Part shown: one piece after another, positions 46,148 to 47,280 of the stretch
Position numbering within the stretch: position 1 is the first letter of the stretch
How the letters are laid out: each line of letters opens with the position of its first letter
Assembly (NCBI GenBank): GCA_964016885.1
Contig: CAXHJY010001721.1
Span: 5,190 to 69,189, forward strand
Length of the DNA: 64,000 nucleotides
From: Eledone cirrhosa
Lineage: Eukaryota
Direction: 5' to 3'
Notes under the pieces: model-generated
What the model saw: only the letters and a program-made list of their open reading frames with translations
Told to the model about the DNA's origin: nothing
Databases searched by the model: none
Translations under genes and position numbers: made by a program

Positions 46148-47280
46148 ATAAAAACAAATAACGAAACGAAATTAAATTTCGTTTCGTTTGTAACTCACTT
46201 TTGTATGACTGACGCTTAAACAATTAAGTTAAAAATGTACATCCACATATGTATACTGAAATACTAGTATGCATATGAATCGACACACGTATACATATGT
46301 AGATGTACCAAGTTTTTCACTGGTCACTTTACTGTGAGTGTCCAGCTATTCTGTATGTAAACACACAGACAAACCGGTTTTTAGAGCCATACTGGTTTTT
46401 GAGGAAACACCTTTCCTCTATTCTCCAGAAAGCCAGACAAGGAATATTGAACTAGTTTCGTTGTTGTTACAACTCATCAGCAATATTTACCTATCTTCCG
46501 GCCCTTCTGGAGAATCGTAAAAGCACATATCGTTATATGCTTTTTCTATGAAAATTAGTAGTGGGCAGACTAATATTCCTTCAATATTCCTTGTCTGGCT
46601 TTCTGGAGAATAGAGGAAAGGTGTTTCCTCAAAAACCAGTATGACTCTAAAAACCGGTTTGTCTGTGTGTTTACATACAGAATAGCTGGACACTCACAGT
46701 AAAGTGACCAGTGAAAAACTTGGTACATCTACATATGTATACGTGTGTGTATTCATATGCATACTAGTATTTCAGTATACATATGTGGATGTACATTTTT
46801 AACTTAATTGTTTAAGCGTCAGTCATACAAAAGTGAGTTACAAACGAAACGAAATTTAATTTCGTTTCGTTATTTGTTTTTATCGTCTCCGTTGAACCGG
46901 TACGTACTCACACTCTATGCAAATTAGTCTGCCCACTACTAATTTTCATAGAAAAAGCATATAACGATATGTGCTTTTACGATTCTCCAGAAGGGCCGGA
47001 AGATAGGTGAATATTGCTGATGAGTTGTAACAACAACGAAAATAGTTCAATATTCCTTGTCTGGCTTTCTGGAGAATAGAGGAAAGGTGTTTCCTCAAAA
47101 ACCAGTATGACTCTAAAAACCGGTTTGTCTGTGTGTTTACATACAGAATAGCTGGACACTCACAGTAAAGTGACCAGTGAAAAACTTGGTACATCTACAT
47201 ATGTATACGTGTGTGTATTCATATGCATACTAGTATTTCAGTATACATATGTGGATGTACATTTTTAACTTAATTGTTTA
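46148..47280 (+). mobile_element. Retrozyme-like element, family F: 466-bp unit x ~1.5 plus inverted arm 46148-46574
   Basis: CAATATTCC at 46582 and 47048; inverted arm; HHRs. Confidence 0.9.
46443..46487 (-). ncRNA. Minimal type I HHR, family F; forward copy 47009-47055
   Basis: Minus AATATTG-CTGATGA-GTTGTaacaACAAC-GAAA-CTAG-TT-CAATATT. Confidence 0.9.

Follow-up and report, generated by a model that had tools for sequence, protein, structure and literature searches.

Does the junction between the two arms of a ribozyme-bearing insertion in Eledone cirrhosa record the self-cleavage of the RNA from which it was copied? The question is raised by a locus in a 64-kb stretch of DNA (64,000 nucleotides; hereafter the window) on a small unplaced contig of the 3.0-Gb genome, where one arm begins at the predicted cut of a hammerhead ribozyme, directly after a duplicated 10-mer. 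A preliminary description took this arrangement as a footprint of cleavage in vivo, in which the reverse transcriptase (RT) would have copied a self-cleaved RNA to its 5' end, re-primed once and joined the inverted arm.

Structure of the locus

The locus (46148..47280) consists of two head-to-head arms of a 466-nt non-LTR retrozyme, inserted in Penelope style into a (TA)n-type microsatellite that forms the left (45675..46150) and right (47279..47930) target flanks. Hereafter, +1 denotes the first base after the predicted hammerhead cut. The inverted arm (46148..46574, minus strand; 427 nt, 98.8% identity) has its 5' end at unit position 342 (46574), runs through the hammerhead into the next unit and has its 3' end at unit position 302, which directly adjoins TA. 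The forward arm (46582..47280, plus strand) extends from +1 to unit position 233 and comprises 1.5 units with one internal hammerhead. Its two copies of unit positions 1–233 are identical, and 46582 lies precisely 466 nt before 47048, the segment 46582..47047 (plus strand) being one unit from cut to cut.

The hammerheads of both arms are characterized by a CUGAUGA core, a 5-bp stem II, a palindromic 2-bp stem III and a GUU triplet, and stem I of the unit's hammerhead begins at CAAUAUU. The type I hammerhead of the inverted arm (46420..46515, minus strand; predicted cut between 46450 and 46449) is intact, with an extended stem I (-66 to +30), and its folding energy of -41.5 kcal/mol (z -5.6) was equalled by none of 200 shuffled sequences. 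The internal hammerhead of the forward arm (47010..47055, plus strand; predicted cut between 47047 and 47048) carries a C>A substitution at 47042 that disrupts the stem III palindrome and is present in 4 of 184 distinct contexts. Stem II exhibits paired T-A/A-T variation among copies.

A retrozyme family with two fixed start sites

Exact 33-mer matches numbered 4929 genome-wide, and the junction of position 302 in TA gave 1913 exact matches; head-to-head insertions of the ribozyme-bearing repeat number about two thousand. The 264 cut-to-cut units that we extracted are 461–484 nt long. The 466-nt element is non-coding, repeats in tandem and carries one type I hammerhead in every repeat; it is low in GC and, as a circle, strongly self-paired (-159 kcal/mol). 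It is dispersed in many copies without LTRs, and its arms terminate straight in TA. An Rfam scan at the gathering score matched no family to it, a self-comparison of the window did not match the unit to any of the RT-coding elements present there, and the output of a generic repeat finder was dominated by TA. A single-arm copy of a related GUC subfamily, approximately 87% identical, is located at 21300..21700 (minus strand; cut at 21527).

To sample insertions by their 3' ends, we took the first 93 of the 1913 junctions of position 302 in TA, all on contig C1, and removed one duplicate. Among the resulting 92 insertions, 69 are two-armed, 19 are single-armed and 4 extend past the retrieved stretch. 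The 69 two-armed insertions show the Penelope-type layout of a tandem array with an inverted 5'-truncated copy, and the two fixed 3' ends (tail) of Penelope-type elements are likewise found in the family: the partner arm of the 302 end stops at 227–234 in 52 of the 60 scorable two-armed insertions, and position 302 is used on both arms in none of the 60. Some loci of a 448-nt family (L400, L403 and L405) seem to use one site on both arms.

Divergence between units inside an arm is 0.64% (70 comparisons) and that between the two arms of an insertion 0.71% (56 comparisons), against 3.5% between different insertions (150 random pairs), which indicates one template sequence per insertion. Both arms are therefore from one template, each taking one of two fixed start sites. 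The pairing of 302 with 227–234 suggests that twin priming is asymmetric and starts at two fixed sites on the RNA. We infer that the template is a circular RNA monomer, which would also regenerate many-unit arrays from arms with a mean length of ∼860 nt; a homogeneous linear multimer, which predicts the same unit and arm identities, may have served instead.

The duplicated patch at the junction

In the junction region (46572–46595), a 10-mer at 46572–46581, corresponding to unit positions +2..+11, is followed by a C at 46582 and by an identical 10-mer at 46583–46592. The first three bases of the patch, AAT (46572..46574, plus strand), both close the inverted arm and match positions +2..+4 of the forward arm. 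The genuinely new sequence is therefore limited to the 7-nt templated insertion at 46575..46581 (plus strand), a copy of +5..+11. Furthermore, the TT at the end of the duplicate matches positions -2 and -1 before the cut, so that the true start of the forward arm may lie anywhere from -2 to +1. The start at the predicted cut 46582 after a duplicated 10-mer, as originally reported, is thus confirmed with these two refinements. The exact stutter string occurs only once in the genome.

How much weight does such a match carry? It involves 6 of 466 positions, each insertion has two ends and the window contains about ten head-to-head elements, so that a single coincidence at the cut is within chance. 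One junction at the cut is no evidence of cleavage, and the 46582 junction itself is ordinary. Its second join even points slightly the other way. Pairing through TT is possible only if the forward cDNA continued for two bases beyond the cut or carried added A's, a mild argument for an uncut template; a cut RNA supplies no TT unless the RT added AA, and this counts against a self-cleaved template.

The 7-nt insert between AAT and TT, together with a family-wide excess of microhomology, is what a microhomology-mediated join with templated insertion leaves. Among the 69 two-armed junctions of the 3'-end sample, 36 show an overlap, 13 are flush and 20 contain inserts, of which 7 have 1–2 extra bases and 13 at least 3; some of the latter are plainly copies of the flanks. 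Of the 49 joins without an insert, 20% overlap by at least 4 nt, versus 2.3% expected by chance. Own-arm duplications of at least 8 nt are present at 3 of 21 ends at the cut (the 46582 locus counted) versus 18 of 438 ends elsewhere, several of the 18 being palindrome artefacts. A stutter specific to the cut is not supported (p = 0.06 with the 46582 locus; 2/20 without it). In five loci (L086, L105, L206, L214 and L254), a recurring join connects -66 to +16..+25 via 13–15 nt of stem I complementarity, and L186 contains a foreign GC-rich insert of 65 nt (500–564), both flanking arms of which end at +14.

Distribution of 5' ends around the cleavage site

The preliminary description had proposed that 5' breakpoints be mapped relative to the cut, with a uniform distribution speaking against cleavage. 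Requiring sequence near the cut biases a sample, and we therefore used the loci from the initial DNA search (40 of 363 candidates scored) and from the 33-mer matches for anatomy only. In the 92 insertions sampled by the 3' end, the 5' ends (n = 157) are spread over the whole unit. None falls at -3..+3, where 1.9 are expected, although ∼275 reverse-transcription passes over the cut are represented. The constant hazard fitted to the 157 ends is 1.16e-3 per nt, and a near-uniform hazard fits them (chi2 27 on 17 df, p = 0.058). In this sample, 14 ends lie at +1..+26 (8.5 expected), 5 at -26..-1 (8.3 expected) and 4 at +27..+52 (8.8 expected). An R2-like concentration of 5' junctions at the self-cleavage site was thus not found (0/157): the breakpoints are scattered without a spike, and all that remains of the proposed association with the cut is a step, which replicates in the main (GUU) subfamily.

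This step was detected in targeted scans, whose patterns combine an exact downstream anchor with non-consensus upstream bases and capture junctions in a 60-nt interval. In the first scan, 100 of 162 matches were listed and 97 rows were covered by retrieved loci; two unrelated rows, one indel row, indel-only and duplicate rows and the window's own junction were left out. The 92 ends among the matches listed are distributed 20:18:54 over -30..-4, -3..+3 and +4..+30 (19:15:58 before the manual correction of four ends, which brought three into the cut bin). The best change point among them is -3 (permutation p < 2e-4), with -5..-2 within 2 log-likelihood units of the best, and no significant spike rises above the downstream plateau at the cut (p = 0.09). 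A replicate scan with a different filter listed 100 of 206 matches, including 28 previously seen rows, 3 duplicates, 1 row out of range and 15 new rows at -47..-31. The 53 new ends in range among these listed matches are distributed 14:8:31, again with a step (p = 0.004) and without a significant spike (p = 0.42). Among the matches listed, the first scan shows a step of 2.95-fold and the new rows one of 2.28-fold; in both scans together it is 2.7-fold (34:26:85 upstream, at and downstream of the cut; p = 6e-8), with the cut bin exceeding the upstream bin (p = 6e-6) and no significant spike at the cut (p = 0.10). Search-filter bias as the cause of the step was ruled out by a simulated capture with a pass rate of 0.309 at all positions, and microhomology availability was ruled out as well.

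In a control scan downstream of the cut (100 of 232 matches listed, 12 left out), we counted 38 ends at +10..+26, 20 at +27..+50 and 30 at +51..+70. Among these listed matches the density of ends thus falls 2.7-fold at +27, a position without a cut (38 ends per 17 nt versus 20 per 24 nt, p = 2e-4), which shows that steps of similar size also exist away from the cut. The rows of the control, replicate, GUC, 310-nt and 448-nt scans were read by eye; scripts run on the first 30 rows of each mostly agreed to within 1–3 nt, with a few differences of up to 7 nt.

GUC and GUA triplets are expected to cut better than GUU. In the GUC subfamily, for which all 45 matches were listed and 6 left out, the 39 ends are distributed 17:1:21 over the same three bins (one row, L305, is ambiguous between +2 and +9); there is no step (ratio 1.09), and the difference from the main subfamily is significant (p = 0.016). 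A 448-nt GUA family (100 of 466 matches listed, 8 left out) gave 31:5:56 among the matches listed, with a rise at ∼+9 and a downstream count that is too high owing to an A run at +26..+30. The scan of a 310-nt GUA family (27 ends, 10:2:15, among 100 of 1354 matches listed) is weak, as 72 of the 100 rows have no break in the scanned interval and mostly belong to a subfamily with a 2-nt insertion. Pooled over the three groups, the cut bin contains 8 of 158 ends among the matches listed, which is no excess, and is depleted relative to the downstream plateau (p = 0.003); the corresponding figure for the main subfamily is 26 of 145 (p = 4e-4, among the matches listed). The missing step of the GUC subfamily is not due to a weaker stem I, which is equally stable there (-33.5 versus -32.5 kcal/mol in the main subfamily). 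The absence of a step from the GUC subfamily, albeit at n = 39, is accounted for by neither stalling nor cleavage.

Origin of the junction and of the step

We favour, with a probability of roughly 0.6, the interpretation that the junction at 46572–46582 arose by stalling of the RT in stem I followed by microhomology-mediated joining with templated insertion, its overlap with the cut being largely incidental. A Penelope-type RT would copy a single, probably circular, RNA from primers at the two ends of a break and would stall within the long stem I of the ribozyme. The end of the top-strand cDNA would then pair with the other cDNA through AAT, copy 7 nt, release and re-prime on TT, and microhomology-mediated end joining would seal the two arms. 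The arm layout, the fixed 3' ends, the near-identity within insertions, the scattered 5' ends and the excess microhomology are direct observations; the enzyme, the circular template, the stalling in stem I and the order AAT, 7 nt, TT are inferred. A Penelope-like element (PLE) protein is described as cutting and extending both strands, starting at two internal RNA sites, in an in vitro system in which hammerhead cleavage was not needed; in the sections compared, no RNA-seq reads ended at the cut (PMC11167929). Templated insertions of <25 bp primed by minimal pairing are described as a mark of Pol-theta end joining (PMC12426944).

The main competing possibility, which we regard as tentative, is that a few percent of the ribozyme sites were self-cleaved when copied and that the RT ran off the template at +1. 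Trimming by 0–25 nt during end joining would then smear the stop into -3..+26, and two non-templated A's or a slip would supply the TT at the 46582 junction. The two explanations are difficult to separate by position, because folding places +1..+30 in the 3' strand of the ∼30-bp stem I, the inner end of which is the cut, and the hot block of 5' ends (-3..+26) coincides with this strand; stalling and run-off with trimming thus predict the same edge, and the step is ambiguous. The step is replicated and is due to neither the filter nor the microhomology supply, and the sharp edge at the cut in the main subfamily, where 14 of the 26 cut-bin ends among the matches listed are compatible with precisely +1, favours cleavage, as do individual loci. 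In L097 (1470–2008), two directly repeated copies of an arm of +1..232 share their private variants and each start at the cut; no other single locus points so clearly to a hard stop with re-initiation. Units are joined from ∼-29 to +1 in L091 (C1 near 218.587 Mb) and L250, starts at +1 recur in L209, the two arms of L335 and those of L343 all end at +2, on a 6-nt palindrome, and T runs precede +1 in L220 and L221; L097, L091, L209, L335 and L343 look like hard stops at +1 or +2. R2, whose 5' junctions track the ribozyme cut (PMC3774820), offers a precedent. However, none of the 157 unbiased ends lies at the cut, no significant spike appears among the matches listed, and 3 of the 18 cut-bin ends of the first scan were placed by hand. 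The palindromic nature of +2..+7 itself attracts fold-back joins. The flat plateau without decay, the drop at +27 and the shifted (448-nt family, ∼+9, among the matches listed) or absent edge in the three groups expected to cut better favour stalling, although the stepless GUC subfamily with its equal stem I argues against a pure stem-stall model. The original proposal that the RT copied a self-cleaved RNA is thus partly supported: the replicated step of the main subfamily speaks for it, and the lack of ends at the cut in the unbiased sample, of a significant spike and of an excess in the GUC and GUA groups speaks against it. It is possible, though rather doubtful, that germ-line self-cleavage of a few percent of the retrozyme templates has left its record in the genome as the 2.7-fold step; were the excess due entirely to cleavage, it would still amount to a few percent of passes.

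That the 10-mer repeat is younger than the insertion, produced by replication slippage at a junction that was itself ordinary, or that it reflects an error in the consensus of a small unplaced contig, appears improbable. The junction string is unique in the genome and the TCCTTG tract has undergone slippage-like expansions in L091 and L103, as such an origin would allow, but the duplicate begins right at the 3-nt overlap and ends on a second microhomology, which is the layout of a templated insertion, and similar patches are present at many other junctions. As a separate observation, L091 and L250 contain variant units that lack ∼-28..-1 (the core and stems II and III), with the join falling exactly at +1, and that are repeated inside one insertion.

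Comparison with known systems

The 466-nt element is a further non-LTR retrozyme, inserted in the known Penelope manner. As described for animal non-LTR retrozymes in the passages compared (PMC7229834; bioRxiv 10.64898/2026.07.22.740005), it is a non-coding tandem unit of low GC with one type I hammerhead per unit, strong self-pairing as a circle and thousands of copies, although its length is slightly above the quoted 150–450 bp. Head-to-head arms, paired 3' ends and breakpoint maps are absent from those passages, and the word 'inverted' does not occur in the text of PMC7229834. Penelope-like elements, as portrayed in the parts of the sources compared, have inverted 5'-truncated copies, a tail and microsatellite targets (PMC8557442; Poseidon PAc in vitro, PMC11167929). 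The 466-nt element shares with them the partial tandem next to an inverted, 5'-truncated copy, the pair of fixed 3' ends of which one alone has a tail, the AT-rich targets and the minimal-stem-III hammerhead. It differs from them in its 466-nt unit without an ORF and in its tail of ∼70 nt rather than 30–40 nt. For the anole PLE, extension of both strands from two internal start sites is reported (PMC11167929), and the present family agrees with this.

That junctions can record ribozyme cleavage is established for R2, where genomic 5' junctions reflect self-cleavage by an HDV-like ribozyme and variable junctions show chance microhomologies (PMC3774820). Whereas the cut defines the 5' end of R2, ∼95% of the passes cross the site in the present family and the ends are scattered. 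The short flank-copied insertion between microhomologies of 2–3 nt is similar to those, sometimes iterated, of Pol-theta end joining (PMC12426944), although slippage of the RT would yield the same product.

The role of hammerheads in Penelope-like elements has been called unclear (PMC8557442). In the present family the answer at genome scale is that cleaved RNA can serve as no more than a minor template, since the ribozyme site is crossed in ∼95% of reverse-transcription passes. Our incomplete literature search, limited to main texts, found no map of PLE or retrozyme 5' breakpoints relative to the hammerhead cut. One template with two fixed start sites is a more useful result than the junction: one start site per arm would explain the Penelope 'tail' at a single end and makes the twin-priming model testable. 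If the step does represent cleavage, thousands of insertions would read out both Penelope twin priming and ribozyme activity in vivo.

Other elements in the window

None of the 11 window cuts examined has a copy starting near +17, as had been described for one family; starts were found at -125, -82, -54, -48, -5, +40, +45, +88, +102 and +107 to +150. The PLE reported to start ∼20 nt downstream of its cut does so: it begins at 8331, which is +21 relative to the cut of a hammerhead with a mutated core (minus strand, 7756). This element (7581–13038) contains frameshifted ORFs (8681–11040) and an inverted 5' arm; in addition to the mutated core at 7756, the core is deleted in the copy near 12990. 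Pfam yielded a weak RVT_1 match in one of the five PLE-like ORFs of the window and no classification, and a pairwise comparison of two of these ORFs found nothing.

Approximately eight further hammerhead-bearing repeat families are present in the window, several of them head-to-head in TA tracts (at 3529, 13347/14127/22951, 27421/27869, 35315–36675, 37094, 38640, 48323/52052 and 48632/50776); Rfam at the gathering score detected none of them. Head-to-head, partly tandem repeats of the same layout occupy 15643–17904, 23188–26949 and 34136–34663, and relaxed scans revealed no hammerhead in these three. Finally, long ORFs of other retroelements are located at 29710–32439, 53697–56833 and 41857–45278; judging from their translations, two are LINE-like, and one, on the minus strand, is RT-coding with a weak RVT_1 match.
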